The notes under the pieces were generated by a model. The model saw nothing but the letters and a program-made list of their open reading frames with translations, ran no database searches and was not told the DNA's origin. A stretch of DNA of 64,000 nucleotides from the IMG/VR virus record IMGVR_UViG_3300042892_001369, positions 533 to 64,532 of that record; one strand, written 5' to 3'. Shown here one piece after another: positions 27,501-61,151 of the stretch (positions are counted from its first letter, which is position 1; each line of letters begins with the position of its first letter). Both the position numbers and the translations under genes were made by a program. Source of the DNA: a virus. Taxonomy: Duplodnaviria; Caudoviricetes.

Positions 27501-27571
27501 CGTATAGCATTTACAAGGTTGATACGGGTTGATCTTGATAATATAGGTGTAACAAATTAAATATAAATATT

Positions 27572-27809: not shown

Positions 27810-27933
27810 ACTCTGCATCCTGCGGAATGGACAGGCGGAGCCGTGGCTACAAGCGAGCGGAGCGAGTGTATAGCACTTACAGACTTAGTACGAAGAGTAT
27901 TTGATAATATAAATGTAACTAAAATAAATAACT

Positions 27934-28116
27934 ATGATATTAAAAATTAATAAAAATTTCAGATCAATTATTACTAATCAATTAATTAATTCAAATAAAT
28001 TAAACTTTGAATTTAAAATTCTAAACTCAAATTTATTAATCAATTCAAAAGATCTTGAAGAAGTTGATAAAATATTAAATAAAAACTTTCACAAATATAA
28101 AGTTCTTACAAAGTAG
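27934..28116 (+). CDS. Early hypothetical protein
   Basis: 60 aa behind promoter copy 2. Confidence 0.6.
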   Translation: MILKINKNFRSIITNQLINSNKLNFEFKILNSNLLINSKDLEEVDKILNKNFHKYKVLTK

Positions 28117-28162
28117 ATACGAAGAGTAATTGATAATATAAGTGTAACTAAAAATAAATAAT

Positions 28163-28318: not shown

Positions 28319-28376
28319 TCTACAAACCTAATACGACTAGTAATTGATAATAATAATGTAACTAAAAATAAATAAT

Positions 28377-28613: not shown

Positions 28614-28697
28614 TATGCTATACATCTCTACAGACCTAATACGAAATGAATTTGATAATATAAATGAATATAAATAATAACTTAAATAAATAAAATT

Positions 28698-29063: not shown

Positions 29064-29187
29064 CCGTTGTAGCCCACGGGGGTAACCTCAACACGCTGTA
29101 ATCATTGAGCCTCTGCGAATGCTATACATTTACAGTGTAAATACGAGATCAAAATGATAATATAAATGTAACTAAAATAAATATACT

Positions 29188-29896: not shown

Positions 29897-30046
29897 AACA
29901 CCCGCAGGGTGTATAGCATACAGCCCTAACACGGTTGTTTTTTGATAATAATTATGGGTCTGGCTCTGAAATAAGGTCGAAAGAGTAGACTCCGTCCTAC
30001 ACGATAGTTTCTGGGCTCACCGAACCGTATAAGATCAAAAAAAAAG

Positions 30047-30091: not shown

Positions 30092-30390
30092 ACTTTTCCA
30101 AATACTCGGGTCGCCACGGCCCCCCAACACACCGTGTATAGCACTTACAAGCATAATACGAGCTCAATTTGATAATATATTTGAATAAAATGACCGATTC
30201 TAGTCAATCAAAGTAATAAATGTACCATATTTTGGTGTAAATGTGTTGTTTTGAGTAACAAACGTAGAGATAGGGGGTTATATATACATTACTTTTTTTT
30301 CTTATAAATAAAGTGCAACCTTCTTACGGTCTTGATACGAATTGGATTTGATAATATAAGTGTAAGTATAACAAACTAATATAAACGATT

Positions 30391-30515: not shown

Positions 30516-30638
30516 ATGGAAGAATATAGCGATTGTTGTGGTGCAAGTAGACACCATATATTTGATGAGTTGTGTGGAGATTGTTTAGAACATTGCGAAT
30601 TTACGGATTGGGATGGAGAAGACGATATACAATCTTAA
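30516..30638 (+). CDS. Small Cys-rich, zinc-finger-like protein, not in the ORF track
   Basis: MEEYSDCCGASRHHIFDELCGDCLEHCEFTDWDGEDDIQS (40 aa), with CC...CxxCxxHC. Confidence 0.65.
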   Translation: MEEYSDCCGASRHHIFDELCGDCLEHCEFTDWDGEDDIQS

Positions 30639-30684
30639 TACGAATTGAGTTTGATAATAAATGTGTAACTAAAAAAGATATAAT

Positions 30685-32368
30685 ATGAATTTAGATTTTA
30701 AAAAATTGAGTGTGAGTGACCAAGTTAAAGCGGTTGAAAATGTGATTAGGCTTGATAGTATTAACTACTTATGCTACTTAATCGGTAACGGTGAAAAATC
30801 ACACGATGTGTATGGGTGGTTTGTATTAGGTGATAGCTTAGAAGGTGACCAATATTGGTATGATGTAAGAAACGAAATAACTAAAAGCGAAACAAATGAA
30901 AAAGTTTAATGGATTTGAAGCTCACTTATTAGAGGAGGGTTTAAAAAGATATGTCGAGGCTATCGTCGATGACATTATTACGGCGGAACACAAAGGTAAA
31001 CGTCCTATCATGACGGCGGATTATGTTCGTATGATTGAACGTGAGACATTAGAAAAATTAAAAAGTTTAACTCTAAAACAAAAGTAATATGAATAAAATA
31101 ATAAGTTGTGAGAGTGTGTATTGGTGTGAAGGTGATGACCGTTATGTACGTGTGTTCCAATTAGGCGATGAAATTACCGGTATCAACTTCATGCAAGGTG
31201 ATGATTATGAATTATTCAACGATGACTACCAAGGTATCGATGAAGACTTAACAAACTTTTTCCACGCTACAAAAAATCATTTGAGTGGCGACACTAGAAT
31301 TGAGCGTATTAACCAAGCGATTTGGGCGTGGTTTGACTATAAAAATAACTACTAAAACGAGTAATATGAAAGAGTATAATATTGAAGTGTGCGAAACACT
31401 TATAAGAATAGTAACCGTTGAAGCAACGAGTGAAGAACAAGCATTAGAGTTTGTACGGTATGATTATAACAATGCGGAATTAGTATTGGATAGCGATGAC
31501 TTTTTTGATGTGGATTTTGAAATTGTAAATAGAGATTAATATGAATATAGAAATAACAAAGATTGAAGCAAATGTAATTCAAGTGGCGCTTGACCACCTA
31601 TACGAGATGCATAGAGAAATAGTAACCGAAGCATTATGTGATAATGATTCCGAAACCGTACGATTTTCGTCTCACGTGTTAAGTAATATCACAGAGATAC
31701 AAGAAGAAATAAAATATAAATTAACTTTAGAAACGGATAAATAATGAAACAAATAGTAAACACAGTAAGTACAATAGATTTTAGAGATATAACTAACAAT
31801 TCGTTTGTTGGTATTGCTTTTGGTCATGACCATAAAGCTATGGTTATTCGAGTAGAACGAGATAAGTTCATGAGTTTAAGTAACCACAGTTATTGCAATC
31901 TACTTGATTGTTGGGATTCAACTACAATGCAAAGTTATATCTCTAAAGCCTTGAGTCAAGGTGATTATGTTAAAGCATACGCTTTTAATGATATAAAAGA
32001 ATTATTAACTTGGTTAACACTTGAATAATATGGCAAATAAAATAACAATGGATTCGGTACATGCTTTTGTAATAGGGAGGCCGTTTTGTAGACAGAATAT
32101 GGAGGTAACCGCTAATGACAACGGCGTATACTTAAAACTACACGGTAATGTAATAGCGAGACGTGACCGTGAAAATGGTGCGGTGTTTATTAGTAATTGT
32201 GGTTGGTCTACTAACACAACTAAGATGCGGTTGAATTACTTGCTATACATGTATAACTCGCCCTTCAAAATCACCCAAAAGAATTGGGTATGGTATCTTG
32301 GTGATAAGCAATGGGAAGGCGGTAAGACCTATATATATGATGAGGCTTACAAAGTTAATACGAATTAA
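30685..32368 (+). CDS. Cluster of early hypothetical ORFs (30685-30909, 30896-31087, 31089-31355, 31541-31744, 31744-32028, 32021-32368)
   Basis: Tightly packed or overlapping plus-strand ORFs behind promoter copy 10; no recognisable families. Confidence 0.7.
31366..31539 (+). CDS. DpnD/PcfM-like small protein
   Basis: Likely start MKEYNIEVCETLIRIVTVEATSEEQALEFVRYDYNNAELVLDSDDF, matching the family pattern as I recall it. Confidence 0.55.
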   Translation: MKEYNIEVCETLIRIVTVEATSEEQALEFVRYDYNNAELVLDSDDFFDVDFEIVNRD

Positions 32369-32406
32369 GATTGATAATATAAATGTAACAAATAAAAATT
32401 ATAATT

Positions 32407-33675: not shown

Positions 33676-33736
33676 CTTACAAACATAACACGATTAACAA
33701 TTGATAATATTAATGTAACCAATAAAAATAAAAATT

Positions 33737-34357: not shown

Positions 34358-34633
34358 ATGAACACAATTAAAACAGTAGAAGATTTCAAACAATTCGTTG
34401 GTGACAACGGCAAATTATTTAGTGTAACATTCACAAAGCTTGACGGATCTGAAAGAAAAATGGTTGCACGATTAGATGTAAAAAAATATCTTAAAGGCGG
34501 TAACACACGTTACAATCCAGCATCTCGTAACAATATTATAGTATTCTCAATGAAAGACGACGCCTACCGTACGATCAGCATTGATAGACTATTACGAGTT
34601 AAAGCATTTAATACTACCATACAAGTTGGGTAG
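34358..34633 (+). CDS. SH3/WYL-like beta-barrel protein
   Basis: FSVTFTKLDGSERKMVAR...VFSMKDDAYRTISID pattern of phage SH3-fold (DUF2693-like) proteins. Confidence 0.6.
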   Translation: MNTIKTVEDFKQFVGDNGKLFSVTFTKLDGSERKMVARLDVKKYLKGGNTRYNPASRNNIIVFSMKDDAYRTISIDRLLRVKAFNTTIQVG

Positions 34634-34682
34634 TTACAAAGATAATACGAATACTAACTGATAATATAATAAACTAAACAAT

Positions 34683-35290: not shown

Positions 35291-35358
35291 AATTAATAAC
35301 ATACAAAACAAACACGAATATTAATTGATAATAATAATGTAACTAAAACAAATTAACT

Positions 35359-37900: not shown

Positions 37901-37906
37901 ATAAAT

Positions 37907-38668: not shown

Positions 38669-38735
38669 GTTATATTAAAATTTGTAACAAAAATTAACTA
38701 AATATGTTACAAAATACGTAATTATATTAATATAG

Positions 38736-38815: not shown

Positions 38816-38834
38816 AACCAATTAAATTAAATAT

Positions 38835-39407: not shown

Positions 39408-39411
39408 CTAT

Positions 39412-40152: not shown

Positions 40153-40162
40153 AAAAAAAATT

Positions 40163-40321
40163 ATGAAAAAAGTAACATTAGCATTAGCAGTATTAGGATT
40201 TATTTTTGTATCTTGCAAACAAGAAAGCAATTTAACTAAAGACGAAGTCGCAGTAGATACAACAACTGTTGATAGCACCGCAGTAGACACGACAACCGTA
40301 GATTCAGTAACTAATAAATAA
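40163..40321 (+). CDS. Small lipoprotein, not in the ORF track
   Basis: MKKVTLALAVLGFIFVSC lipobox followed by VDTTTVDSTAVDTTTVDSV (52 aa). Confidence 0.75.
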   Translation: MKKVTLALAVLGFIFVSCKQESNLTKDEVAVDTTTVDSTAVDTTTVDSVTNK

Positions 40322-40327
40322 TTATAT

Positions 40328-40645
40328 ATGGCGAGTATTATTAAAGCGAGTATCAACTTAAACGAGATACCAAAGCACAAGATCATTGATGGTAAGAAAG
40401 GGAAGTACTTACCTATTACCATTACTATCAATGATGAAGTTGATCAGTTTGGAAATCAAGGACCAGTAATGGTCGAACAATCAAAAGAAGAAAGGGAATC
40501 AAAAGCTACAAAAGTTTATCTTGGCAATGTAAAAGTTGTATGGACAAATGGAACTAATGTAGCAGCAGCTCCTCAAAACGGACAAGCACCGCCGCAAAAA
40601 CAAGCGCAGTCTTTTGCGCCACAAGCGGACGATCTCCCCTTCTAA
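40328..40645 (+). CDS. Single-stranded DNA-binding protein
   Basis: Beta-rich core, Q/P/A linker and C-terminal DDLPF tail; replication context. Confidence 0.75.
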   Translation: MASIIKASINLNEIPKHKIIDGKKGKYLPITITINDEVDQFGNQGPVMVEQSKEERESKATKVYLGNVKVVWTNGTNVAAAPQNGQAPPQKQAQSFAPQADDLPF

Positions 40646-40667
40646 ATTTATAAGTTTAAATAGTTAG

Positions 40668-40692
40668 TTAAGCCCCACAAGTTGGGGTTTAA
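40668..40692 (+). terminator. Hairpin after the SSB gene
   Basis: TTAAGCCCCA-CAAGT-TGGGGTTTAA. Confidence 0.55.
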
Positions 40693-40817
40693 TTATCTAT
40701 AATAATGAGCTTTTACAATACAAACACGATAACACATTGATAATATATATGTAACAGACTATATTCATTTAGATATAAAATAATCAATTATTAACAAATC
40801 ATATTCAATTAGATATA

Positions 40818-47847: not shown

Positions 47848-50800
47848 TTAATCACCGCCCATCTTTTTCTTTCTACGCTCTCTTTTCTTTCTATACTTTT
47901 CTTGCCTTACTTGGTCTAAATAGTTATTATATTCATCATCAGATAATTTACTTATAGAGTCTTTTAGCGCGGTCTTTTTAGCTTCCCTTGTTTCCTTAGA
48001 CTTTATTTTGCCTTCTTCTTTACGCTGAGCTTTTGCTTCCTCAATAATCTTTAAATCACCAGGAGTTTTTTCTATTCCAACTGTCCAAGGAGTAAACCCT
48101 AATGCAACAGCTGCTCTTTGCCATGCCGCATTTTGATTGTTTAATGCTTGAGAAACATTTTCAATTTTATTTACCAAACGATCCATTGGTACATTTAATA
48201 ATACCTCAGCCCCTTTACCAGTTACAGAATACATAGGGCCAAGATGAACTCTTCCGTCTTGCATTATTCCCCAACCTCTTTCTTCTATTAAATCTTTGTC
48301 AAATTCTGTTTGCTTTAACCCGGCATATAATTTTCTTAATTTAGATCCAATTGGAGGAGATATATTAGCAGCTTCAATCGCAACGCCCGCATAATCTTTT
48401 TGTTTTTTATTCTGTTGTTCCATGTATTTTACAGCCACATTTTTAAGAGTAGATACAATACCTCCATAGAACCCAGTACCCCTAAGGATTGAATCAAGTA
48501 CTCCATTAGCTAAATCAACAGTCTTTTCTTCTCTATTCTTTTTTCTTTTTGCTTCTTCTTCATCTTCGTCAAACAATACTGAAAATAAACCTTGCTGTAA
48601 TATTGAAAATGCCGTATTTTGAAGTATTAAATAATAACTGATTTTAGCAATATTAGTTTTAGCATCCCCCCTACCGTTTTTCAAATCCAAAAAAGCTTTT
48701 TTAACTAATCTTGATTGCTGCATTGCTGTATTCTGAAAAGTCAATAGTAATCTTCCAGCTCCACTTGCTTGTTGTTTAGATATATCCTTTGGATCACCAG
48801 ATTGTTGTGTCTCATCTGAGATCTTAGAAAATTCTTCCCATGCTAATGCTTCAGCTTCAGCTTTAGACATACCTTCTGAAATATGAGTTTTAATTCTATT
48901 TCTATAATACGGAGCACCACCTGATGATATTGCAAAACTATCTGCTAATTGAGTTGGAGTATAACCTATTTTCAATAGATATGAGATAACAGCTGCTGGT
49001 TTGTTTTTACTGCCAGCAGCCGCATTTGCAATTTCAGAAGCAACAACATCCTCGCGTAATCCGCCACGTCTTTCTTTCATTTTATCAGAGTTCCATATAG
49101 TAGAAAAATCACTCCAATATTGTTTCTGATTAGCAAAAGCTTTGGCGACCGCAACAGGGTTATTGTCTCTTAAATTTAAGAAGTTAGCCGTACTAAGTAA
49201 TTGTAAAGCGGCGGATCTTGTGTTAAGGAACATAATAACTCCCGTTGATCCTGTGACCCAATTAGTCCACATGCTTGTCTCTCTGTCTTTCCCGTAGCTA
49301 CGGTTTTTACCATTAGTCATTCTATATATTGAGTCCTCTAATGCTTCTCTTACATCAGTTCCATATACAGCCTGGATTTTATTCATATTAGGGCCGACTA
49401 ATTTACCGGATTCCCATTTTCCGAAGATAGTCTCAACATTTTCAATAAACTCTCCTAAGAATTTTTTTCTTCCACCTGATTGAGTTATATTAAATAGATC
49501 AGAAACTATTGTATCAGTGTCCCAATGTTCAGATGGTTCAACCCAGCCCTTCTCTTGTCGACTCATTGCCTTTAATCCTTCTTTAAATGCCAGCAATTGG
49601 GGGTCGTTATTAACCATATCAACAAGTTTTCTATTGTCTCTTTTAGTTAATCCCGGTATTTCGATTCCCGCATCATTCCATAATGCAACCCGTATCGCTT
49701 GATCATAAGTAAAATCTTTATCAGGATTAAGGGTTTCTAATTTCTTTTTAACATCCGGGAATGCTTTTGTCAATGTTTTGTACGATTTTTTAATTGACTG
49801 TCTTGCCCCGTCCATTAAATTAACACCATTAATATATGGTTTTAATAAAGTCTCGTCAAAGAATTTTTGTTGTTCTTCACCTCGTCTACCTTTGCCCATA
49901 AATTTATATAGTAATAATTCAAAGTCTGCTGCAGATGGCGGAACATATAAATCAAATTTATTTTTACCAGCCCCGCGTCTTTTTGCAACAATATCAGAAT
50001 ATACTTTGTAACTTTCTACTCCTTTATTTTCCTCAATAATTTTATTAAACTCCTCAGACAATCCCTTGCTGCGTTTAATTTTAGCTTGTTGCACTTTTGA
50101 TTTAACATCCAATACGCTAAGAGCTTCTTTAACTGCTTTAACATTTTGAATAGCATCATCTGAAAAATAAAAATCATTATATCCCTCGGCTGCTTTACTA
50201 ATAATCCAGTCAGCCTTAGCCTTAGCGGTGCTATTTCCTAATCCTACAATATTATCTAATTTAATATCTAATCCTTGTGCTTTTAAAAATTCTTGTATAG
50301 CAATATTTGAATCGGCTGGTCTAGCGGTCAAGACGTAAACATCTTTAGTTCCAAACTTACCAGCGAGTTTCATAGCTTTATCAAACATCGGCCCCCTTTG
50401 CCCCTCATTTACTTTTGAAAATTCAGAGAAATCGAATACTGCTCCTCTGTCTAAGTAATCTTGACCAGATTTTGCAAATTCTTCTGCGTTTAGTTTTCCA
50501 CGCTCCCCATCTGGCATTGTATATAATACATTTGATTTTGTTCTAGCTAATGTGTCGTCAAAGTCTAATACACTTATGCCTTTGTTTTCTTTGCTACGCA
50601 TAAGTGATCTTTCAATGGCGGTACTATTATTTATCTGTAGTCTTCTTTCTTTTGCTCCCTGGGCATTGTTCATAGCTGCATCTAATATTTCTTTAGATCC
50701 ATATAAACTTTCTATGTTATGCATCCTATTGCGATAAGGTATTAAAGCTTCTAAAAATTCTGGAGCAAAATGCCTGTCTTTACCGGTGTATTTTAGATTA

Positions 50801-53800
50801 GAGTCTGTCAATGCCTGATCCGCCGATAACGGAATTAAATTCACCCTCATTTTATTAACAAACCCTTCTAATTCCGTTCTGGTCATATTAGGATCTTTCA
50901 AAAACCTTTTTAGCTCGGCTTTTAAATCATTTATGGTTGTATTGTGCTCTAATCTGCTTTCACTTGATTTTAAACCATCAATCCAAAACCCTGCTTTTGA
51001 CATTTTTCTAATTGCGCCAAGCATGTCCACCGCTAATAAGTCAATATGATTTTCTCCTTTTTCAACCATACCTTTTTTCTTATAATACTCTATAGTATCA
51101 ATAACATACTTTTGCTGTTTAGCCGCTTCTGCATCAATAGTTTTAATTACCTCTTTACCTTTATCCACTGTATTGGCTTTTCTAAGCTCGGATTTTATTT
51201 CTGATATAGGTTTATTATGTGTAAAAACGTCACCATCTATAGTAATATAAGTTCTAAGCTTACCACTTACGGTTTTTTCTTTAAGACCAAAAACACCTTC
51301 TCCGTAAAGTTCTCCCAAACGCTCTTCCCCGAATACTTTTCTTAGAGCTGGATCCAAAACATAAGTAAGATAATCTCTATTGGTTGTAAAGAAATTCCCT
51401 TCGCTAGTTTTAAAAGACTTTAATTCTGCTTTTAAGAATTCATTTACCGATGAGGCAATAGTTTTATTGTCAGCATTCTTTAATTTTGACAGAGTGCGTT
51501 CTAATGCTTCTGTAGAAGCTATTGACCCAGCTTTTTGTACTACCGACCCCAATTTTTTACCGCGAGCTTCTTCCATAGAACGCTCATAAGCCATATACTC
51601 TTGTATAATAGGATTAGAAGTAGCTTTTTCTTTATCTATTGTTGCAGTATTTGATATGTAATCTTTTACAATTGATTGCTCGTTGAGCGCCAAATTATCA
51701 TAAAATTTAAAGAATTCATCTTTAGCTTTTGAAATATCTGCTGTCTCATTTTTGTTTTTTGATCTCTTAACATTACCTCTCTCTATTTGTCTAATAATAT
51801 CAACAGCCATTGCATCACCAATAGTAACACCCTGTCTTTCTTGATTAGTAACTAACGCTTCAAACAATGGCCCCTCTTCTGCAAAGTCTTTTGCAATAAT
51901 ATCAAATGATATTTCCTCTGCTGTAGCTTTTGCTAACGATTCTTTTCGGCCACGAATAGGATTGCCTGTTGAGCCTAAAAATTGACCTAGATAATCAGCA
52001 TCAGAAACTAAGTTAACTGCGTTAGGTAGCCTTCTAACAAGCTCTGCGCCAGATGTACGTCCCGCATTATCCGTAGACACAGCTTCACGATCTATTTTTT
52101 GGTCAACCCACTCAGGGTAATTAACCCACTTACCGTTTATTCTTTTTTGTATTGCTTGTGGTATACCTCCAACGCCATTAGCCCCCATTAGCCATGTAGT
52201 AGTCATGTTCTCTAATGTTGCTTTTTTATTTTTTAATAGCCAACTTCTAAATTGATTATCTTTTTTTCCACCCATTGCGGTTTTTAAATCAATATCCGCT
52301 TGTTTACCCATTGCATCTTTGATTTCTGCAATTATTGGCGTAACCGTTCTATTAAGCGTAATTGGTGTGTCTAATCTAGACTTTGTAGTTCTAAGTGTAG
52401 TTAAAACTTTATTGGTAATTGATTGTACAACTGGTTCTTCGACAATTTTTTGATCCAACAAACTTTTATACTTAGGAGCTTCAGCTTCTACTCTTTCAAA
52501 AGATTGCTCAGCTGTTTCAGTAGCCATTAACCCTTTCTGATCTTCAATATCTTTTGAAAATTCTTTACCCAAAACCCTTCTTGATGCTGTAATTGCTCTA
52601 ACAGGTAAATATTTATTAATATATGCGGCCAATGGAATTCCCATTGCAGGATCATATTTTTGAATTAAAGATAAAATTCCACCATCTCCGGTCTCTATTT
52701 CATCTGTTAATAATTCTTCTTCAAACCCCGGAGCGTCTTTTCTTTTATTAACGAGTGCTTTTGTAATTGGCTTGAATAAATTTATAATATCCATTGCAGC
52801 TTCAACTCCCTTAGCATTGTAAGCGGCCTGCACTCTATCGGAAGCAATCTTGCCTTTATTATCCGTAATTACTTTCCTAGCCTCTTCTTCATAGCTTACA
52901 TTTAATTTCTCCGGTTTAGCTTTTACTTCAGCAACCGGATTTTCCAAGGCATCTATTTTGTCCTCAAGAACTTTAAGTTTCTCTTTATAAACTTTATCGG
53001 TTACGCCTCCATAACTCCAAGTCTCAGTTAAATCTTCAATTTGATTTTCTAAGTCTTCTATTTTTTCTTTTGATCTAATAATATTTGTTCTAGAAATCTC
53101 AGTCGCTCCTTTTGTTCTTTCAGCAAAAGAAATAGCTTTTTCACTAGCTTCTCCTTTTTTACCAGACTCTGCTAATGATTTTAATATTCCTGTAATTTCT
53201 TCTACACTAGCTTCTTCCGGAATAGGCTCTCCGGTTTTTCCTGCCACTTTTTTTAATGTTTTATCAAAGAATGATTTAAAGCTATTAATGCTTTCTTTGT
53301 TATAACTTAATTCACCTGTTCTATTTGCCTCAGAAAAAGCAGCTAAGTATTCTTCATAATATTTATTTTTAAGAACCGGAACTTTTTCTATTTTCCCATT
53401 CTTATCTAATTTTTCTTCAAACGCGTATGGTTTTACGGCATCAGTTACTACCTTTAGCTCTTTGGAGGATAACGTAGCTAGCCAATTATCTATAAAATCA
53501 ACGCCTTCGTCAGTTAATGTACCATCATCATTTTTCATCCACTCTCCAAATACTAAATGGGTGGATTCATGTCCTCCTGTTCCTGTCTTACTATATTCTT
53601 TTGCTAAAGATTTATTGATATGTAAATTACCATTTAAATCGTAAAATCCAAAACTGATTTCTCCTGATTTCAGCTTATTACTTTCACCAAATGATACGGC
53701 TGTTTTTTCAAATCTTTCAGTAGCGTTTTCTCCTTCATAAACTATTACTTCTTTGCCTAATGCTTTTGCATTTTCTTCTGCTGATTTTATATCAAGATCT

Positions 53801-56658
53801 AGATCTTTTACTAATCTAGTGTCGCTTTCCCCAATAAGCTTTCTTGCCTCAGATTCTAGGGCCTCTGACTTTTTAGTTAACTCTGTTAGTTTTGTTTCAT
53901 AGACTACTTTTAATGCCGGGTTATCTTTAGCTAATGCTTCATTTGTTTTTATTTCCCCTTGAATCTTAGCTTGGTTAAACATATTTTCAAGCAAAGGTTT
54001 TCTTTCCGGTGTATTTCTAAATATTTTCATTTGATCAAGAGCAGTGCCAATTTTTTGGGCGGTTCCTTGATAGCTATTCATAATATCGTATATCGGAGAA
54101 TTTTTCTTTAATCCTAGTTGGTTAGCAATTAATTCAATTGGATTGCTTGCCAAAAGCTCTAAAGAAGTGCTATCTAGATTTTCACCATATTTGATTCTAT
54201 TTGCTGCTACCCATAAATCTGTAGCGTCATAATCAACAACACCCGCGGCTATATCGCCCTTTGCAATTTGAATGTCAACATTTCCTCTTAATACATTAGC
54301 TGCTTTTCTTATAGCCGCTTCTTCCGTAGCCATAGCTTCAAAATTATCTGAATCTTCGTATTTTTTTTCAAGTTTTTCAATAGCTTCTTTTTCAGCTTTG
54401 TCAATTTCAATATTTCTATTCTCAGCTTCTTTGCCTTTTGAAACTTTTAACTTACCATCTATACCTAATATTTTACCCGCATTAGGGCTCTCAACATCAA
54501 ACACCGGTAGTTTGTTTATATCAGATTTTAAATTTTCAAATGTTTGTCTAGGAGCAAATCCCCCTAATAACACAAGTGACCCAAATGTGCCGGCTACATG
54601 CTGATAATCGGATAATTGAGCCCATTGTTGTGCTTGATCAATTTTGCCCTTTGCGACTAATTGATCCTTTATTAATGTAGCTCTTTCAGCTATATTCATT
54701 ACAACAGTTCCCGACGTAGCACCAGTTAAAACATTTGCTGCTTGACTAGCTGTTTTTGATTTAGAACCAAACATAAGTATTGGTGACAAAAAAGGTATTT
54801 TATTTGCTACCATCTTTTTTATCAACTTACCAGCTAAAACATTACCAACGCCTAAACTTGCCGCAAACGTAGCATCTACAGGTGGAGCTCCCGTTGTATT
54901 TGCTAAAACTTCATCAGCACCGGCCATTAAAGCAACTTCTCTAGCCCCTCCTACAAATAACGCAGTAGCATTTCTCATTGCTCTACTATTGCCAAATACT
55001 TTACTAGACCAAGCTGTAAATATATTGCCTGCTTGTGTTAATTGTGGCCCTGATAATTTTTTTGTTAGGAATAACGATCCTACAAGCGGAATTAAATGAG
55101 CTGTGCCTTTTAAAGACAAATCTCCTATATCTTCCTTTAATATTTTTTCTAATTGATTAGGATTTTCATATTTAAACCCAGCACTAATTAATGATTCATT
55201 AAAAGCCTTTGCGGCCTCCTTTGTGTTTTGTAATCCAGTTGCCGAGTATATACCTGTATTTCCAAAAGCTTTATATGTTTCATCAATAAAATCAACAATT
55301 TTGTAATTTCTTTCTGCTGCAATTGGATCAGCATTTAATTCAATTGCTTTTGTTAAAGTTACATATTCTTGTAATTTTTGGTTAAAAGCTTTTGCAATTG
55401 GATTGTTTCCTGGTAATTCGTTTAAATTTGATGGAAGTTTTCCTGTTTCATAAACTTGCCCTAAGTTTTTTATATCTTGGAAATAGCCTTCATTATCTTC
55501 AGGGTCTTCAGATGTAATATCTTGAATATAAGATCCAATTTTTTCAATATTACTTTCACCTTCCCATATTTTATCTTTAAGCTGTAGGGCTTTATTTGAC
55601 AATGCTAAAAGCTGATAATACGAATCCTCCTGAGCAGCCTGCAAATCATCTATTCCTCTGGTTTCAGCAATAGCAGCTGCATTAGCATCTTGGTTTTCTT
55701 TCCAAGCCAACGCTTTTTTAGCAGTTAGCAATTCGCCGGTATTTTCGTCGTATAATTTAGTTTTTATACCTAAAGCCTCTCTTCCCGCTTTTATTTCGCT
55801 CTCAAGTCTATTAATTTCAGAGGTATTTTTTTCAGTTTTTGCTCTTATTAATAAACTGGTTTTTCTAACAAGCTCTCGTTCTCCATAGTCAAGGAATTCT
55901 CTGCCATTTGACGAAGCTTTATCTCTTGTATTAACTTTTTTGCTAAGATCTAATGCTCGTTCGGCTTCTCCATTTTCAATAACCCACGCTTGTTGCATTC
56001 TTGGCAAGTTATTAATTATAAACTGCCCGTCTTTTATATTAGTATATTCTTTGTCTTGTAGCTCGTTATTTACTACCGGCGCAATTTGGCCTGTTATTCC
56101 ATCAGCACTAGTAATTGTACTAATAGCTTGATATACCTCTGGCTTTTCAAGTTCACTTTCTGAAACCCAAATAAGATCGCCTAATTTATTTTTATATGTA
56201 TTAGATTTATTTTCTACTTGTTGTTCATCAACTCTAACTTTTGAATCATTTAAGCTAGCTATAATACTAGCGTCTTCTAATCTTTTTTGCCCAGCTTTGA
56301 TAGATTCTTTTTCTCTTTGCTCGTTTAAATATTCTGGGCTATATATAGAAAACTTTTCCTCTTGAGCAGGATATACTAATTCAACGTTGGCTTTTTCAAT
56401 ATCTACTGGGGATATTTTTTCTGTTTTTTTTGGCTTACGTCTATCTTTTTTAAAATCGTATGAAAAATTATCAATTTGTTCGCTTTTTGACGGCTCACTC
56501 CAAGGATATTTTTTTGTAGAAACTTTTGTTTCTTCTGTTTTTTTCTTTAAACCTTTACTCTCTATAATGGCACTAGCCGAGGTTTTTTGCTCGGCTGCCA
56601 TTTTATTTATTTGATCTTCTGTATAGATTTGCCCAGAGGCATCAACGTATTCAAACAT
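47848..56658 (-). CDS. Giant (2936 aa) virion/ejection polyvalent protein with zincin, sigma-region-2-like and HAD modules
   Basis: HESTH at aa 1030; GILSLIQKYDPAMGIPLAAYINKYLPVRAI from aa 1327; DFDDT at aa 2032 with LTAR and FSDD; last gene of the ejection-protein cluster. Confidence 0.8.
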   Translation of the reverse strand: MFEYVDASGQIYTEDQINKMAAEQKTSASAIIESKGLKKKTEETKVSTKKYPWSEPSKSEQIDNFSYDFKKDRRKPKKTEKISPVDIEKANVELVYPAQEEKFSIYSPEYLNEQREKESIKAGQKRLEDASIIASLNDSKVRVDEQQVENKSNTYKNKLGDLIWVSESELEKPEVYQAISTITSADGITGQIAPVVNNELQDKEYTNIKDGQFIINNLPRMQQAWVIENGEAERALDLSKKVNTRDKASSNGREFLDYGERELVRKTSLLIRAKTEKNTSEINRLESEIKAGREALGIKTKLYDENTGELLTAKKALAWKENQDANAAAIAETRGIDDLQAAQEDSYYQLLALSNKALQLKDKIWEGESNIEKIGSYIQDITSEDPEDNEGYFQDIKNLGQVYETGKLPSNLNELPGNNPIAKAFNQKLQEYVTLTKAIELNADPIAAERNYKIVDFIDETYKAFGNTGIYSATGLQNTKEAAKAFNESLISAGFKYENPNQLEKILKEDIGDLSLKGTAHLIPLVGSLFLTKKLSGPQLTQAGNIFTAWSSKVFGNSRAMRNATALFVGGAREVALMAGADEVLANTTGAPPVDATFAASLGVGNVLAGKLIKKMVANKIPFLSPILMFGSKSKTASQAANVLTGATSGTVVMNIAERATLIKDQLVAKGKIDQAQQWAQLSDYQHVAGTFGSLVLLGGFAPRQTFENLKSDINKLPVFDVESPNAGKILGIDGKLKVSKGKEAENRNIEIDKAEKEAIEKLEKKYEDSDNFEAMATEEAAIRKAANVLRGNVDIQIAKGDIAAGVVDYDATDLWVAANRIKYGENLDSTSLELLASNPIELIANQLGLKKNSPIYDIMNSYQGTAQKIGTALDQMKIFRNTPERKPLLENMFNQAKIQGEIKTNEALAKDNPALKVVYETKLTELTKKSEALESEARKLIGESDTRLVKDLDLDIKSAEENAKALGKEVIVYEGENATERFEKTAVSFGESNKLKSGEISFGFYDLNGNLHINKSLAKEYSKTGTGGHESTHLVFGEWMKNDDGTLTDEGVDFIDNWLATLSSKELKVVTDAVKPYAFEEKLDKNGKIEKVPVLKNKYYEEYLAAFSEANRTGELSYNKESINSFKSFFDKTLKKVAGKTGEPIPEEASVEEITGILKSLAESGKKGEASEKAISFAERTKGATEISRTNIIRSKEKIEDLENQIEDLTETWSYGGVTDKVYKEKLKVLEDKIDALENPVAEVKAKPEKLNVSYEEEARKVITDNKGKIASDRVQAAYNAKGVEAAMDIINLFKPITKALVNKRKDAPGFEEELLTDEIETGDGGILSLIQKYDPAMGIPLAAYINKYLPVRAITASRRVLGKEFSKDIEDQKGLMATETAEQSFERVEAEAPKYKSLLDQKIVEEPVVQSITNKVLTTLRTTKSRLDTPITLNRTVTPIIAEIKDAMGKQADIDLKTAMGGKKDNQFRSWLLKNKKATLENMTTTWLMGANGVGGIPQAIQKRINGKWVNYPEWVDQKIDREAVSTDNAGRTSGAELVRRLPNAVNLVSDADYLGQFLGSTGNPIRGRKESLAKATAEEISFDIIAKDFAEEGPLFEALVTNQERQGVTIGDAMAVDIIRQIERGNVKRSKNKNETADISKAKDEFFKFYDNLALNEQSIVKDYISNTATIDKEKATSNPIIQEYMAYERSMEEARGKKLGSVVQKAGSIASTEALERTLSKLKNADNKTIASSVNEFLKAELKSFKTSEGNFFTTNRDYLTYVLDPALRKVFGEERLGELYGEGVFGLKEKTVSGKLRTYITIDGDVFTHNKPISEIKSELRKANTVDKGKEVIKTIDAEAAKQQKYVIDTIEYYKKKGMVEKGENHIDLLAVDMLGAIRKMSKAGFWIDGLKSSESRLEHNTTINDLKAELKRFLKDPNMTRTELEGFVNKMRVNLIPLSADQALTDSNLKYTGKDRHFAPEFLEALIPYRNRMHNIESLYGSKEILDAAMNNAQGAKERRLQINNSTAIERSLMRSKENKGISVLDFDDTLARTKSNVLYTMPDGERGKLNAEEFAKSGQDYLDRGAVFDFSEFSKVNEGQRGPMFDKAMKLAGKFGTKDVYVLTARPADSNIAIQEFLKAQGLDIKLDNIVGLGNSTAKAKADWIISKAAEGYNDFYFSDDAIQNVKAVKEALSVLDVKSKVQQAKIKRSKGLSEEFNKIIEENKGVESYKVYSDIVAKRRGAGKNKFDLYVPPSAADFELLLYKFMGKGRRGEEQQKFFDETLLKPYINGVNLMDGARQSIKKSYKTLTKAFPDVKKKLETLNPDKDFTYDQAIRVALWNDAGIEIPGLTKRDNRKLVDMVNNDPQLLAFKEGLKAMSRQEKGWVEPSEHWDTDTIVSDLFNITQSGGRKKFLGEFIENVETIFGKWESGKLVGPNMNKIQAVYGTDVREALEDSIYRMTNGKNRSYGKDRETSMWTNWVTGSTGVIMFLNTRSAALQLLSTANFLNLRDNNPVAVAKAFANQKQYWSDFSTIWNSDKMKERRGGLREDVVASEIANAAAGSKNKPAAVISYLLKIGYTPTQLADSFAISSGGAPYYRNRIKTHISEGMSKAEAEALAWEEFSKISDETQQSGDPKDISKQQASGAGRLLLTFQNTAMQQSRLVKKAFLDLKNGRGDAKTNIAKISYYLILQNTAFSILQQGLFSVLFDEDEEEAKRKKNREEKTVDLANGVLDSILRGTGFYGGIVSTLKNVAVKYMEQQNKKQKDYAGVAIEAANISPPIGSKLRKLYAGLKQTEFDKDLIEERGWGIMQDGRVHLGPMYSVTGKGAEVLLNVPMDRLVNKIENVSQALNNQNAAWQRAAVALGFTPWTVGIEKTPGDLKIIEEAKAQRKEEGKIKSKETREAKKTALKDSISKLSDDEYNNYLDQVRQEKYRKKRERRKKKMGGD

Positions 56659-56670
56659 AAGTATTTATTT

Positions 56671-58104
56671 TTATTTAGCAGGTATTGATCCAGTTCTTAC
56701 ATAAGCTTCGGCTGCTTCAGCATTTGGAATATTTTCACCAGCAAGAGCACCTCCAATTACATTCCACTTTTTGCCATCGAATACTGCTTTACGGTCTTTA
56801 AATCGTATCTCTGTTTTGTTGCCTGCATTTGCTTTCTTTATACCTTGTTTTAATGCCTTTTCTTCCTCTGCAGCTTTTTCATCAGATGCAGATGTTTTTG
56901 TTGTCTTACCTTCTTTTTTCTTTGGTACTTTTAAAATAAGTGTGGATGGATCTTCCTTTTGAATAATTTGTTGGCTTGGGACTTTTGCTTCAACCCAATA
57001 TTTTATATATTCTTCTTCAGCTTTGTCTCTTTCCTTTTCCGTCAAAACCCGATTATCAGGCATTAGTTCTTTAGTTTCTTCTGTAGATCTTTCCCAAAAT
57101 GGCACAATTATATTGTTATAATATGACGCTAAAGTAGAGTCATCAAACGCCGCTAACTGTCCAAATAGCTGTTCCTTTACCTCAGGTAGTATTGCTCCTT
57201 TATTAACTTTTGCTACTAGTTTGTATTGCCCCGGCAAATCGCCATAAGGCTCTCTTTCATATTCAATTTTGCCAGTTTTTGGATCTTTTACCAAATAATC
57301 AATATTTATATTTGCCGTAGCTATCGTGCCTTTAGATGGGTCCTTTGGATCAACAAGTTTGTTTTCAAAAACATTAGAAACTTGTTTTTTTACAGCCTCA
57401 GTATTTGCCGTTGTATCAGGCAATATTTTAACCCCTATTATATTTTGAGCATTCATTTTCTTTAGCTCATCTGCATAGAATCTGTATACCTCTTTTCCTT
57501 CTCCATCTTTTGTTATATAGGCTAACTTTTTAGTTTTAACATCCTCATAAACCGCCTCAACAGAACCATCTATTTTTCCACTAAAAATGCGTAACCCCCT
57601 ATTCAGAGCAGGATCTAACTCCTTTGCTAAGCCGCCCTCTACTCCAACGCCTTTCAACGCAGCCTCTTCAAGATCGGTAACCATTTCTCCAGCTATAACT
57701 AATCCTGCTGAAAAATCATTATCAACGGTTGAATTAATCTCAGACAATTCCATTTGAGCTTCATTCCTTTCCGCTCCTGTTATCTTATTTTGTAAGATAC
57801 TTATATTTAGTTCTTTAGCTCTCTCAATTAAGGGATTAAATGTATTGGCTAAATTTATTTTTGGATTTACACCTTTTAATTTGTTAACCCCATTCATTAA
57901 CCTAATTTGACCCTTTTCAACTTCCTTTTCAACTTCTTGGTTCTTTTTGCCATTTTCTTCTAGCTCTTTACGTTTTTGTTCCTGCACACTCATGTATGTT
58001 TGTCCAAATTTTGCAACAGACCCGGCTAAAGATTCTTGTAAATTTCTAAGGTGCTGACCGCTTTGTGTGTCAACTAGTATTTGTGGATTACTGTATGCTC
58101 CCAT
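56671..58104 (-). CDS. Probable internal virion/ejection protein
   Basis: 477 aa, helical and charged, between the pilot-like and giant proteins. Confidence 0.55.
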   Translation of the reverse strand: MGAYSNPQILVDTQSGQHLRNLQESLAGSVAKFGQTYMSVQEQKRKELEENGKKNQEVEKEVEKGQIRLMNGVNKLKGVNPKINLANTFNPLIERAKELNISILQNKITGAERNEAQMELSEINSTVDNDFSAGLVIAGEMVTDLEEAALKGVGVEGGLAKELDPALNRGLRIFSGKIDGSVEAVYEDVKTKKLAYITKDGEGKEVYRFYADELKKMNAQNIIGVKILPDTTANTEAVKKQVSNVFENKLVDPKDPSKGTIATANINIDYLVKDPKTGKIEYEREPYGDLPGQYKLVAKVNKGAILPEVKEQLFGQLAAFDDSTLASYYNNIIVPFWERSTEETKELMPDNRVLTEKERDKAEEEYIKYWVEAKVPSQQIIQKEDPSTLILKVPKKKEGKTTKTSASDEKAAEEEKALKQGIKKANAGNKTEIRFKDRKAVFDGKKWNVIGGALAGENIPNAEAAEAYVRTGSIPAK

Positions 58105-58107
58105 ATA

Positions 58108-59139
58108 TTATATTTTTTTAAATTCAACATCTAATAAAGAATAATCTACTTTGTCATAGCCATCTTCTGTTTTAATTATAGCGTTTAACGGTATTTCATC
58201 TGACATTACCCCTTGAAAAGTACCTTCTCCTATATTTTTATCTTTGTATTCAAAAGAATAAATATTTAATCCGCTTTTGGATATACCAATTTTTTTAATA
58301 TTTGTTTTTAATCTTCTATCTGATGATGGATAAATGATTGGGGAAACAGCTGGCTGAGGATAAATAGCCGGCCCTGTAGCGGTGCTAATTACCCCTGTTG
58401 GAGAAGTTGTTTTGTTTGATCCGCTAGCAGCCATAGAGGAAGCTATTGAACCTAATCCACCGATCATTCCAGTTAATGCTCCCATCTGATCGGCTCTAGC
58501 CTGCATTTGTTGTGCTTGAGCTTGTTGTTGTTGCCCCGCTACGCGGTCCATTCGCGCAACCTCTCGGTCCTCTCTTGTTCCAAACATAAACTGTTGACCG
58601 GCAACATCAGCTTGCTGAATCCTTTGAGCTTCAGACATTTGTATGCTTTGTATTCTTTGGGCTTCGGCCATTTTAATTTGTTGCAGTTGCTGTTCTCCCT
58701 GGGCTCGTAATTTTTGATTATCAGCTTCTTGCATCTCAATACTAGCAGATATTTCTTTTTTACTTTGTAATGCCGCTTGGGCTAATGCAGTTGCTCCACC
58801 CGCTCCAGCTCCGGTTTGTTGTAATGTATCTAATGTATTTGCTAACGACATATCCGCTTGCTCTGCTTGAAACTCAGCTGCTTTTGTAGCAACTCCTAAG
58901 CTATCATAAGGATTTGATACCATGCCAGATAAATCAGAGGCCATAGAACTAATGTCTCTAACCCCAGCGTAAGGATTTATAATCGCTTGACGTGATTGCT
59001 CTAATCTATTTAATTCTTTAGCTTTTGCTTTTGCGGCTCTTGCTGCAGCTCGGCGAGCTCGATTAGCGCTGCTCATGCCTATTAACCCTGACGCTATTGA
59101 TGCTCCGGCCCCAATGCAACCAACTACTACCATTGACAT
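58108..59139 (-). CDS. Pilot/ejection-like protein with C-terminal peptidase S74 (intramolecular chaperone) domain
   Basis: G/A-rich hydrophobic N-terminus, A/Q-rich coils and SDRRLKTNIKKIG...GVMSDE...VDYS. Confidence 0.75.
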   Translation of the reverse strand: MSMVVVGCIGAGASIASGLIGMSSANRARRAAARAAKAKAKELNRLEQSRQAIINPYAGVRDISSMASDLSGMVSNPYDSLGVATKAAEFQAEQADMSLANTLDTLQQTGAGAGGATALAQAALQSKKEISASIEMQEADNQKLRAQGEQQLQQIKMAEAQRIQSIQMSEAQRIQQADVAGQQFMFGTREDREVARMDRVAGQQQQAQAQQMQARADQMGALTGMIGGLGSIASSMAASGSNKTTSPTGVISTATGPAIYPQPAVSPIIYPSSDRRLKTNIKKIGISKSGLNIYSFEYKDKNIGEGTFQGVMSDEIPLNAIIKTEDGYDKVDYSLLDVEFKKI

Positions 59140-59142
59140 ATT

Positions 59143-59616
59143 TTATTCGTTTAAAAGTTTATATTCTTTGTATTCTTCATAAGACTTGCAGGTTAACATA
59201 TCTTCCAATGTTGCAATGTCCGTTATATTTTCCGGGTTTGGATATACATTGACGAAGACAGAATCTTCAACCGCGTATATAACTCTTTTGGTGCCTTCTG
59301 GTGCATAAACATAACAAGGAGCTATGTAAGCATTAACTCCCTCGTCTGTAGCCACCGTAATCTCTCCTTCTAATAAAAACCATGTATGTGATATCTTATA
59401 TAATTTTCCAATCACAACCCCTGTTTTTTGCATAAACATCTCCCGAATATAAACTCCCTCAGAAAATGAATGCTTTAATGGAAACATATCAGAATTCCCC
59501 TTTGCTACCAAGTCTGTGTTCATTGCCAGCATAGAGGATTCTAATTGTTCTACTTTATTTATGAACTCAGTATTTATTAACCGATGTTCTTGATTTAATT
59601 TAATTTGATTTTCCAT
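59143..59616 (-). CDS. Cupin-like protein
   Basis: LKHSFSEGVYIREMFM...HTWFLLEGEITV...APEGTKRV pattern. Confidence 0.6.
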   Translation of the reverse strand: MENQIKLNQEHRLINTEFINKVEQLESSMLAMNTDLVAKGNSDMFPLKHSFSEGVYIREMFMQKTGVVIGKLYKISHTWFLLEGEITVATDEGVNAYIAPCYVYAPEGTKRVIYAVEDSVFVNVYPNPENITDIATLEDMLTCKSYEEYKEYKLLNE

Positions 59617-59622
59617 TTATAT

Positions 59623-61068: not shown

Positions 61069-61076
61069 ATAATTAT

Positions 61077-61102
61077 TATCACTTATTTATTGTATTAATT
61101 AC
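61077..61102 (-). promoter_or_regulatory. Putative late promoter GTAA-N16-GTGATA
   Basis: Heads the ejection-protein operon, just after a hairpin. Confidence 0.45.
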
Positions 61103-61132
61103 GGTAGTATAACGAAATGCATTATACTACCG
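61102..61132 (-). terminator. Intergenic hairpin
   Basis: CGGTAGTATAA...TTATACTACCG perfect 11-bp stem. Confidence 0.6.
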
Positions 61133-61151
61133 CAATGATATTGCATATTTT

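Follow-up and report, generated by a model that had tools for sequence, protein, structure and literature searches.

Phages are known to start their transcriptional programme either via early promoters that mimic those of the host or by means of an injected RNA polymerase (RNAP). To the second type belong gp50 of N4-like phages and gp66 of the crAss-like phage phi14:2, giant virion RNAPs which are encoded with the structural genes and are thought to transcribe the early genes, with phage-specific promoters, at time zero. In sigma factors, domain 2 docks on the β′ clamp helices and reads the -10 element, and a late sigma factor consisting of region 2 only is found in T4, where gp55 directs the host core RNAP to a promoter consisting of TATAAATA, an extended -10-like box. 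A small protein that is free in the infected cell, gp55 is synthesized during infection, depends on both gp33 and the sliding clamp, and is not carried in the virion.

The domain described here lies in a window of 64,000 nucleotides (the whole stretch of DNA analyzed, positions 533 to 64,532 of the IMG/VR record IMGVR_UViG_3300042892_001369) from an uncultivated phage of 64.5 kb. It is embedded in a late-gene protein encoded by a giant open reading frame (ORF), P0001 (47848..56658, minus strand; 2936 aa, from the ORF list and its translation), which ends the minus-strand block of structural genes and whose neighbours match PHROG virion-structural and tail-fibre families. Judged by gene order and annotation, P0001 is probably an internal or ejected virion protein, and from these features together with synteny we infer that it is packaged: Elemovirus gp18 (3694 aa), which is syntenic with P0001, is annotated as 'structural protein', and MW202828 harbors a giant ORF in the matching position. 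The literature on Cellulophaga phage proteomics, considered without its supplementary data, offered no paper directly useful with regard to packaging. The terminase of this phage is nearest to those of Flavobacterium and Cellulophaga podoviruses, and the phage is not crAss-like.

Compared with sigma-70 domain 2, as represented by PF04542, 8b3z and sigma-A/sigma-70, the P0001 domain has the same helical fold and the same order and spacing of regions 2.1–2.4, but it is embedded in a 2936-aa ORF, stays below threshold in Pfam and precedes a conserved domain that is unrelated to sigma factors and has no fold match in the PDB. In contrast to a complete sigma factor, P0001 has no detected regions 3 and 4. 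It also differs from gp50 and gp66, which carry a catalytic RNAP, in that none was detected by Pfam, PHROGs or a PDB sequence search of aa 1–2935, in keeping with the original prediction that an RNAP catalytic motif is absent. A reading of P0001 as a virion RNAP was rejected given the outcome of the Pfam and PHROGs searches; instead, P0001 is proposed to borrow the host core RNAP. In a search of the genome PF00940 was absent, with search controls that were uninformative.

The sigma-like module was originally placed at 51766–53067 (aa 1198–1631) with no strand given. It is encoded on the minus strand, and a plus-strand reading of this span is full of stops. Only part of the span proved sigma-like, namely an N sub-domain of about 110 residues (aa 1269–1379; 52522..52854, minus strand) defined by fold and profile matches, while aa 1395–1637 form a separate conserved domain, here called the C sub-domain (51748..52476, minus strand). 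Between them lies a low-confidence linker (aa 1366–1394; 52477..52563, minus strand), with pLDDT below 50 at residues 98–126 of the model of aa 1269–1637. The segment comprising aa 1198–1631 has 1120 homologues at E ≤ 0.001 (8000 candidates scored), and this 434-aa family comprises 466 cluster representatives at 50% identity; none of the 120 homologues listed carried a Pfam domain. In 50,697 phage records, neither blastn nor tblastn found a match to the segment or to the last 950 aa of P0001, and phmmer with four pieces spanning aa 1–2935 found none among PDB sequences (E ≤ 1; E ≤ 10 for aa 1198–1631). Likewise, no description of the segment family was found in the literature.

The fold and the family-wide conservation of the N sub-domain were computed. 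Its AlphaFold model, built with no template, was all-helical (pLDDT 88.8, pTM 0.78), and 48 of the top 50 Foldseek matches in the PDB were sigma chains or domain-2 entries (probability up to 0.97), a count in which the PDB sigma chains are redundant copies of few proteins. The model superimposed on the SigE N-domain 8b3z_C with a TM-score by target of 0.68 and an rmsd of 2.7 Å over 75 columns, and among the top 20 BFVD matches phage sigma factors made up 8 of the 10 named proteins. The helical fold of sigma domain 2 is thus seen in the model, with weak Foldseek E-values (at least 0.45 in the PDB and at least 0.013 in BFVD). On the whole, aa 1269–1379 probably adopt a true sigma-2 fold, as anticipated in the proposed Foldseek check.

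At the sequence level, the resemblance to sigma region 2 exceeds chance, yet it is weak. Neither P0001 nor its segments matched PF04542 (Sigma70_r2) or any other sigma family in Pfam at E ≤ 10. Of the P0001 homologues, 8 of 53 family members matched PF04542 with E-values from 3.2e-4 to 0.046, the best of them (20.9 bits) below the 24-bit gathering score. The four matching homologues that were re-examined all aligned in one register, at profile positions 21–67. A PDB profile search with the family returned four sigma factors among eight matches, including 8b3z (E 0.0053); its top match was an unrelated Piwi protein (E 2e-4), and spurious matches of such strength are therefore possible. An hhalign comparison with 28 diverse bacterial sigma-2 regions gave P 0.0026 in the register of regions 2.1–2.4, with 1 of 60 column-shuffled controls reaching the observed score, and a comparison of the family with the phage's own sigma factor, P0002, gave E 0.0045; the hhalign probabilities were low, at 11.5% and 7.7%, respectively. 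The family profile also found P0002 at its region 2 (aa 34–121, E 2.2e-4 in a 4-sequence set), and the family HMM recovered genuine phage sigma factors, again by their region 2, in G000, G060 and G072. A sigma-2 HMM built from the 28 bacterial sigma factors did not recover P0001 at E ≤ 10, and BLASTP of the segment against P0002 gave nothing significant (best E 5.6).

The pattern noticed in the original prediction, whose quoted peptide AAMDIINLF...ITASRR corresponds to aa 1287–1361 (nt 52576–52800), was in this way borne out by the homologue Pfam matches, hhalign and the AlphaFold/Foldseek comparisons. Mean identity among 120 homologues reached 73% over aa 1301–1350, and within the N sub-domain conservation was highest in the equivalents of regions 2.2 and 2.3, the most conserved stretch being PLAAYINKYLPVRAI (nt 52591–52635). 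The pattern of region 2.2 aligned gap-free with DEIETGxGGILxLIxKYDP, and the region 2.3 element F/L-x-x-Y with PLAAY. In E. coli sigma-70, the aromatic residues Y430, W433 and W434 serve to recognize and melt the -10 element. In the ungapped alignment, the position of the W433-W434 pair is occupied by K-Y in P0001 and by A-Q in a divergent subfamily, while the tyrosine position of region 2.3/2.4 is kept, or replaced by W, H or F, across the family. A sigma region 3 or 4 (PF04545 and PF08281 included) had no Pfam match in P0001 at E ≤ 10.

We also co-folded the N sub-domain with residues 245–400 of a stand-in β′ subunit from a Flavobacteriaceae MAG, clamp helices included. The score was 0.50 (runs of 0.20, 0.50 and 0.58), whereas the best of three controls reached 0.00; from run to run, 47% or more of the contacts agreed, and the partner pLDDT did not fall below 64. 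Of 80 solved complexes, 58 attained this mark, as did 2 of 110 mismatched pairs, and passes at or below 0.60 comprised only 7 of the 80 solved complexes and both of the mismatches. As sigma–β′ complexes have already been solved, the pass may reflect likeness to known structures. The co-folding check set out in the original prediction lends weak support to a possible docking of the N sub-domain on the β′ clamp helices.

The C sub-domain is highly conserved, with 54–78% mean identity per 50-aa block over aa 1401–1600 (120 homologues), mixed helix and strand and a pLDDT of about 90. Its invariant polar residues fall in NRTVTP, LENMTTTWL, AIQK, GxTxG..RR and RGRKES. Foldseek of the whole aa 1269–1637 model against the PDB gave no usable match for the C sub-domain, and sigma chains recurred in it at probabilities of up to 0.28. 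Member-wise Pfam searches on the C sub-domain yielded no recurring family; GBP_C, matched in 5 of 33 members, was dismissed as noise, which we attribute to a coiled-coil signal in the linker helix, and an Atlas search reached a score of only 0.81, which was uninformative. We flag this conserved domain, which lacks a known fold, beside the sigma-like domain.

The phage also encodes a complete sigma factor, separate from P0001. P0002 (37907..38668, plus strand; 253 aa) matched PF04542 at 23.8 bits (27.3 with neighbours; E 2.2e-6) and the phrog_351 sigma factor at E 3e-21, and its homologues bear PF04542 or PF04545. It is a free protein with homologues matching Pfam region 2 or region 4, in contrast to the P0001 domain, which is internal to a giant ORF. 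P0002 did not figure in the original prediction.

The early genes lie mid-genome, at 27.5–47.5 kb, and are preceded by a long motif with the consensus tTACAa-N4-tAAtACGA-N8-TTGATAATAtaaaTGtAac. At no more than one mismatch, 15 plus-strand copies were found at about 27524–40745, namely at 27510..27553, 27876..27919, 28105..28148, 28319..28362, 28627..28670, 29129..29172, 29917..29960 (one core mismatch, with no ORF start close behind), 30144..30187, 30323..30366, 30626..30669, 32346..32389, 33676..33719, 34633..34676, 35300..35343 (the last copy upstream of P0002) and 40712..40755 (upstream of the primase/helicase gene). At up to two mismatches there were 29 matches against 11.4 expected, a number reached in none of 100 shuffles. 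In its core, TGATAATAT, the motif is similar to an extended -10 element: an extended -10-like TGnTAATAT lies within the motif, the ACG and TACA blocks upstream of it are invariant, and TATAAAT is present in 5 of the 15 copies. The motif does not fit the Bacteroidota -33/-7 consensus, a comparison relevant to a flavobacterial host.

This one long motif, with its extended -10-like core, is present at all mapped early promoters. Between 35343 and 37907, upstream of P0002, there was neither an early motif nor a predicted plus-strand terminator. Since its gene lies downstream of the motif promoters, P0002 cannot be the first factor, and the sharing of the motif by all mapped early promoters, together with this position of P0002, indicates that some factor is needed at time zero; an RNAP encoded by the phage was not detected in the Pfam and PHROGs searches. 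No tRNA or Rfam family was found near the early region, and a minus-strand late-promoter motif was dropped, as the search gave only two copies of TAATATATATATTAAA.

The module and the motif were then compared across 43 related records, all of which carry a P0002-type sigma factor. Thirteen of these had no module match at E ≤ 0.001, and 10 of the 13 keep at least five same-strand motif copies as nGATAATA; in 10 of the 43, the N sub-domain occurs without the C sub-domain in the giant ORF. Local full-sensitivity HMM searches of the giant ORFs found no sigma-2-like match for G072 or G074 and a weak one for G060 (E 8.2e-4), and HMM searches of Elemovirus gp18 and of the MW202828 giant ORF did not find the module. 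The motif variant (T, G or A before GATAATA) followed overall divergence among the 43 records and not module presence; the comparison of module and motif thus has no discriminating power, and their co-variation was rejected as a test. A separate sigma factor was present in all 17 near-complete module-bearing records, 13 of which came from the sigma-selected set and 4 (of 4) were new.

We assign a probability of roughly 0.4 to the reading that P0001 is an ejected protein in which a diverged sigma-70 domain 2 captures core RNAP for the early motif. P0001 would be carried within the virion and ejected together with the DNA, and because only few copies can be delivered the domain would have to act locally. 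It would capture the host core RNAP at the entering genome via the clamp helices and help to initiate transcription at the 15 phage-specific motif copies; ejection and promoter use are both inferred. The domain would then act as a minimal, region-2-only sigma factor. T4 gp55 is a precedent for such a factor, and the TATAAAT of some motif copies recalls its box. The neighbouring C sub-domain may, speculatively, add DNA or RNAP contacts, proteolytic release of the sigma-like domain from the 2936-aa ORF is possible, and P0002, encoded downstream of the early promoters, would subsequently serve later genes. Redirection of core RNAP to the early motif by the module is in our opinion a live hypothesis, under which the domain could give the phage control of host transcription as it enters the cell. 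The most far-reaching version, in which the virion-delivered factor programs core RNAP for about 15 early promoters at entry with neither host sigma nor prior phage expression, with the C sub-domain replacing regions 3 and 4, and does so throughout an abundant uncultivated group of phages of about 60–70 kb, seems unlikely as a whole.

Part of the evidence can also be accommodated by a fold without any role in transcription, whether acquired by descent or by convergence, which would make the N sub-domain a helical module serving structure or protein binding within a large internal virion protein and leave the early promoters to the host holoenzyme. Sequence signals below the family thresholds, a Piwi protein ranking above sigma factors in the PDB profile search, Foldseek E-values that are not significant by themselves, the lack of a detected sigma-4, the loss of the tryptophan pair, the persistence of the motif where the module is undetected and the weak pass of the complex score all agree with such a module. 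It fits poorly, however, with the dominance of sigma proteins among the fold matches in two independent libraries, with the common register of the Pfam matches, with the concentration of conservation in the region 2.2 and 2.3 equivalents and with the scores of 0.00 in all three co-fold controls, and we consider it a doubtful, though tenable, account. A role in binding host RNAP without promoter specificity would be in line with the weak co-fold support for clamp-helix docking: the domain could anchor RNAP at the end of the DNA or at the ejection complex, or displace host sigma locally, and the promoters would be read either by the host's sigma-A holoenzyme or by P0002, itself translated from an initial transcript that the host drives. 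The separate complete sigma factor in 17 of 17 near-complete module-bearing records and the motif kept without a detectable module would both be expected, and TGnTAATAT is readable by an ordinary sigma-70-family holoenzyme. Nevertheless, transcription-driven DNA entry from the end is not obviously served by early genes in mid-genome, a plain host promoter leaves the invariant ACG and TACA blocks unexplained, the motif misfits the presumed Bacteroidota consensus if the host is a flavobacterium, and P0002, lying downstream of the motif promoters, is not the first factor; this role thus appears rather improbable.

A sigma decoy for host shut-off, with the domain blocking the clamp helices of host RNAP cell-wide, would agree with a sigma-2 fold bearing a region-2.2-like stretch and with the weak co-fold pass. 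An ejected protein is present in few copies per virion and a cell contains thousands of RNAP molecules, so a stoichiometric binder cannot shut off the host; the decoy was rejected on this stoichiometry as very improbable, and Pfam and PHROGs detected no RNAP-directed catalytic domain that would speak for it. Injected polyvalent proteins often bear host-takeover domains (Iyer et al. 2017; PMC5512222), which would be compatible with a decoy.

The sigma-like domain within a giant phage protein is a real observation and a new context for such a domain. If the capture of core RNAP for the early motif is true, it would constitute a third route beside host-sigma promoters and packaged RNAPs, a cheaper one in which the phage brings the specificity part and borrows the catalytic core. 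Even if the domain merely docks on RNAP, it would provide a testable handle on giant podovirus proteins post-ejection.

P0001 as a whole is similar to the polyvalent proteins of phages and conjugative elements (Iyer et al. 2017; PMC5512222). It shares with them its great size and multi-domain make-up with effector-type domains (HAD/PNK-like and sigma-2-like), is encoded in the late region and could plausibly be injected cargo. In that paper the word 'sigma' has no occurrence, which places a sigma-like domain outside the repertoire described there. MuF or LPD (LPD1–39) Pfam domains were not found in P0001 at E ≤ 10. The identity profile of 120 homologues resolved at least four separately conserved blocks in P0001. 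The conserved C-terminal region (aa 2200–2900; 47959..50061, minus strand), with 54–80% mean identity per 50-aa block, had no match in a PDB sequence search; its nearest named Atlas clusters contain LPD39 (28% of members) or LPD38, which may serve as a lead only. The HAD/polynucleotide-kinase-phosphatase-like domain (aa 2017–2196; 50071..50610, minus strand) matched the phrog_415 'polynucleotide kinase' with E 2.4e-5 and carries its DxDxT motif (LDFDDT) at aa 2031–2036. An HExxH motif is present in P0001 at aa 1030–1034.

The region under study was confirmed to lie in a single minus-strand ORF, P0001 (47848–56658; 2936 aa), in which the span of the proposed sigma-like module corresponds to aa 1198–1631 and the sigma-like peptide originally quoted to aa 1287–1361. 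With this segment as query, 1120 homologues were retrieved at E ≤ 0.001 (8000 candidates scored), with 466 representatives in a 50%-identity library, and all of the 120 homologues listed were proteins of 1810–3329 aa without a Pfam domain. Comparison of P0001 with these 120 proteins revealed a variable stretch over the first 900 aa and strong conservation at aa ~1270–1630 and ~2000–2900. The former block was composed of two modules, an N part (aa 1269–1379) and a C part (aa 1395–1637): on the basis of our own coverage thresholds, 149 out of 259 sequences harbored both parts, 84 only the C part and 7 only the N part, although many of the 84 have a divergent N part missed by phmmer.

The P0001 gene is the last of the structural block, a position occupied in Elemovirus by the 3694-aa gp18, annotated as 'structural protein', and in MW202828 by a 3859-aa ORF, neither of which shares detectable sequence with P0001. 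The label 'virion ejection protein' given in the original prediction is therefore reasonable by gene position, but positional and nothing more. In Pfam, P0001 matched nothing beyond a sub-threshold DUF4972, and no solved structure was matched by sequence across the whole ORF. At aa 2017–2196 (50071–50610, minus strand; phrog_415, E 2.4e-5), P0001 has a domain that resembles HAD/polynucleotide-kinase-phosphatase enzymes and contains a DxDxT motif, which suggests an enzymatic cargo function. Separately, an HExxH motif (HESTH; aa 1030–1034, 53557–53571), N-terminal to the sigma-like domain in a stretch of moderate conservation, could belong to a zincin-type protease that processes P0001, a reading backed by no family match.

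With regard to the N part, we analyzed an alignment of 53 rows, comprising aa 1269–1379 and homologous counterparts. When scanned singly, 8 of the 53 rows matched the Pfam family Sigma70_r2, with other families matched by at most 2 rows each; the 4 Sigma70_r2 matches re-examined all covered profile positions 21–67, with E-values from 3.2e-4 to 0.046 and scores under the 24-bit cut-off. Against PDB sequences, the profile of this alignment gave 8 matches at E ≤ 10, 4 of them sigma factors (SigE N-domain 8b3z, 0.0053; RpoH, 0.78; SigA, 0.97; RpoS, 0.98). The two best matches, to an archaeal Piwi protein (E 2e-4), were taken as spurious and warn about sequence matches of this strength. Alignment of the N-part family with hhalign yielded an E-value of 0.0045 against the family of the phage's own sigma factor, and a score of 22.0 (P 0.0026) against 28 diverse bacterial sigma-2 regions from five genomes, compared with 13.9 for the reversed template; a score of 22 was reached by 1 out of 60 column shuffles. 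Furthermore, the HMM of the alignment recognized region 2 of genuine sigma factors in this phage (E 2.2e-4, 4-sequence set) and in the related viral records G060 and G072, while the reverse search of P0001 with a bacterial sigma-2 HMM gave no match. By eye, DEIETGDGGILSLIQKYDP aligns ungapped to the region 2.2 pattern D-L-I-x-x-G-x-x-G-L-x-x-A-x-x-K-F-D, and PLAAY to the region 2.3 pattern F/L-x-x-Y, with the Tyr of PLAAY or another aromatic residue conserved across subfamilies. The positions that we take to be those of the tryptophan pair of sigma-70 are occupied by K-Y in P0001 and by A-Q in a divergent subfamily.

Modeled by AlphaFold2 without templates, the N part was all-helical (pLDDT 88.8, pTM 0.78). 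In a Foldseek search of the PDB for a sigma-2 fold, as proposed in the original prediction, none of the 151 matches reached E ≤ 0.001 (best 0.45). Nevertheless, sigma made up 48 of the top 50, either as chains within holoenzyme or initiation complexes or as domain 2 on its own; these entries are redundant and represent perhaps eight proteins. These identities were assigned from customary chain letters and target lengths, with 8b3z_C, 4x8k_A, 9a58_A and 6omf_F named explicitly as sigma; the two non-sigma matches were an RpsB-RpoC integrative model at rank 1 and a cyclophilin at rank 17. In BFVD, the best match was a homologous protein of an uncultured virus (TM 0.79), after which phage sigma factors accounted for 8 of the 10 named proteins in the top 20, with 13 named sigma factors in the top 50. 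Taken together, the sequence and fold lines make a genuine sigma domain-2 fold likely for the N part.

As suggested in the original prediction, the N part was also co-folded with the beta-prime clamp helices (residues 245–400 from a Flavobacteriaceae MAG as stand-in; 29-row alignment). The median was 0.50 (runs of 0.20, 0.50 and 0.58) versus 0.00 for the best of 3 controls, with contact agreement between runs of at least 47% and partner pLDDT of at least 64. Among benchmark pairs, 58 of 80 solved complexes pass the mark, as do 2 of 110 mismatched pairs, but passes at 0.60 or under comprise only 7 of the 80 complexes and both passing mismatches. This gives weak support to docking, but, because sigma–beta-prime complexes have already been solved, the pass may reflect likeness to them rather than binding.

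In a model of aa 1269–1637 (pLDDT 79.5), the sigma-like bundle was followed by a disordered linker (aa 1366–1394) and a confident mixed alpha/beta domain. This C part has many invariant polar residues, and gave no significant PDB fold match, no recurring Pfam family and no informative Atlas neighbor. Neither sigma region 3 nor region 4 was detectable in P0001 with Pfam.

The phage record is complete (64,532 bp, with direct terminal repeats), and the window covers nearly all of it. Leftward blocks (215–27483 and 47848–63998, minus strand) carry structural and late genes (terminase, portal, virion structural proteins, tail fibers, GroEL), and a rightward block (27.5–47.5 kb, plus strand) carries small early genes, the sigma factor, Erf, exonuclease, primase/helicase, thymidylate synthase, MazG and RNR. 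Among 87 records, the closest terminases were those of Flavobacterium Elemovirus and of Cellulophaga, Tenacibaculum and Maribacter phages (45–65% identity), which places the phage outside the crAss-like group and indicates that its host is probably a flavobacterium. A sigma factor 71% identical to that of the phage is encoded on two contigs (117 kb and 25 kb) of a Flavobacteriaceae MAG. This hints weakly at the host; alternatively, the contigs may be a binned phage, perhaps in the form of a concatemer created by assembly.

The early motif, tTACAa-N4-tAAtACGA-N8-TTGATAATAtaaaTGtAac, occurs in 15 copies at ≤1 core mismatch, all on the plus strand between 27524 and 40745 and ~17–25 nt ahead of start codons. 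At ≤2 mismatches, 29 copies were observed versus 11.4 expected, a number reached by 0 of 100 shuffles. Its core has the form of an extended -10 element (TG-n-TAATAT), with the upstream TACA and ACGA blocks off the canonical -35 spacing; as we read it, the Bacteroidota -33/-7 consensus does not fit either. The phage's own sigma-70-family gene, P0002 (37907–38668, plus strand), whose homologues have r2 or r4 Pfam matches, is located 3' of copy 14 of the motif (35300), the last one to precede it; the interval between the two is free of additional motif copies and of predicted plus-strand terminators. In line with the lack of an RNAP catalytic motif noted originally, no phage RNAP was found in Pfam/PHROG and genome searches. 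Since P0002 is downstream of early motifs and no phage RNAP was found, the first promoters must be read by a factor present at time zero, which could be host holoenzyme or one that is delivered. Among the indirect arguments for the injected sigma-like factor originally proposed, this one is the strongest.

Ejected proteins reach the cell in few copies, and a simple binder would therefore matter only locally, at the incoming genome. This speaks against a cell-wide sigma decoy, which we regard as very improbable, and, if the N part binds RNAP at all, favors a role in bringing a core enzyme to the phage DNA. T4 gp55 provides a precedent for a sigma that consists of region 2 only. Based on few-copy delivery and this precedent, we favor a mechanism in which the N part would capture RNAP locally and then drive initiation at the early promoters; with a probability of roughly 0.4, it is the single most likely one and ranks ahead of all rivals. 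A helical module with a non-transcriptional role is the next candidate, though an unlikely one, and docking on RNAP without promoter specificity appears somewhat less probable still.

The link between module and motif was examined in 43 related viral records of ≥58 kb with a P0002-like sigma. The module was matched at E ≤ 0.001 in 30 records (both parts in 19, the sigma-like part only in 10, where it sits inside giant ORFs of 2092–3216 aa, and a C-part fragment only in 1) and was absent at this threshold in 13. Ten of these 13 keep 5–9 same-strand copies of ACGA-N8-[G/A/C]GATAATA, compared with 0–3 for reversed-pattern controls. A local full-sensitivity HMM search of three of them revealed a weak sigma-like match in the giant ORF of G060 (aa 1189–1277, E 8.2e-4) and none in those of G072 and G074. 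Conversely, all 4 further near-complete module-bearing records have the sigma gene. Because the early-motif variant tracks overall divergence, the comparison neither requires nor excludes a link; on balance, it speaks against strict dependence, unless the phages scored as negative harbor modules that have diverged beyond detection.

In full-text searches of the literature, no paper was found that describes a sigma-like domain carried in the virion or ejected from it. A polyvalent-protein survey does not use the word 'sigma' (0 occurrences; PMC5512222), and passages of a jumbo-phage review cover free phage sigma factors only. The architectural context of this sigma domain is new, and the functional context probably so.

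Several other features were observed in the window. At 29917–30140, early-motif copy 7 has no start codon behind it and instead precedes an untranslated stretch richer in G+C, which gave no match in tRNA and Rfam searches and may give rise to a small non-coding transcript. Directly 3' of P0002, two tandem 40-nt repeats (38729–38808), each with what appears by eye to be an inverted repeat and a T-run after it, resemble a pair of terminators at the end of the early/middle unit. The early-motif core also occurs once, with one mismatch, on the minus strand (61074–61093), in the gap upstream of a 481-aa virion structural gene (59623–61068). Two identical copies of TAATATATATATTAAA (11389–11404 and 16725–16740, minus strand) are found upstream of late-strand genes; the search gave 5 matches versus 1.2 expected. 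A late promoter element is possible, with two copies too few to call. A GroEL-type chaperonin gene (15145–16707; phrog_5725, E 1.1e-135) is also present in Elemovirus and MW202828. Finally, the late and early blocks diverge from an interval of ~270 bp (27230–27500) that looks G+C-rich by eye, with A+T-rich flanks. This interval contains no ORF of ≥80 aa wholly inside, is overlapped by a minus-strand frame (27202–27483; 93 aa), gave no Rfam match and may act as an origin, in packaging or in regulation.
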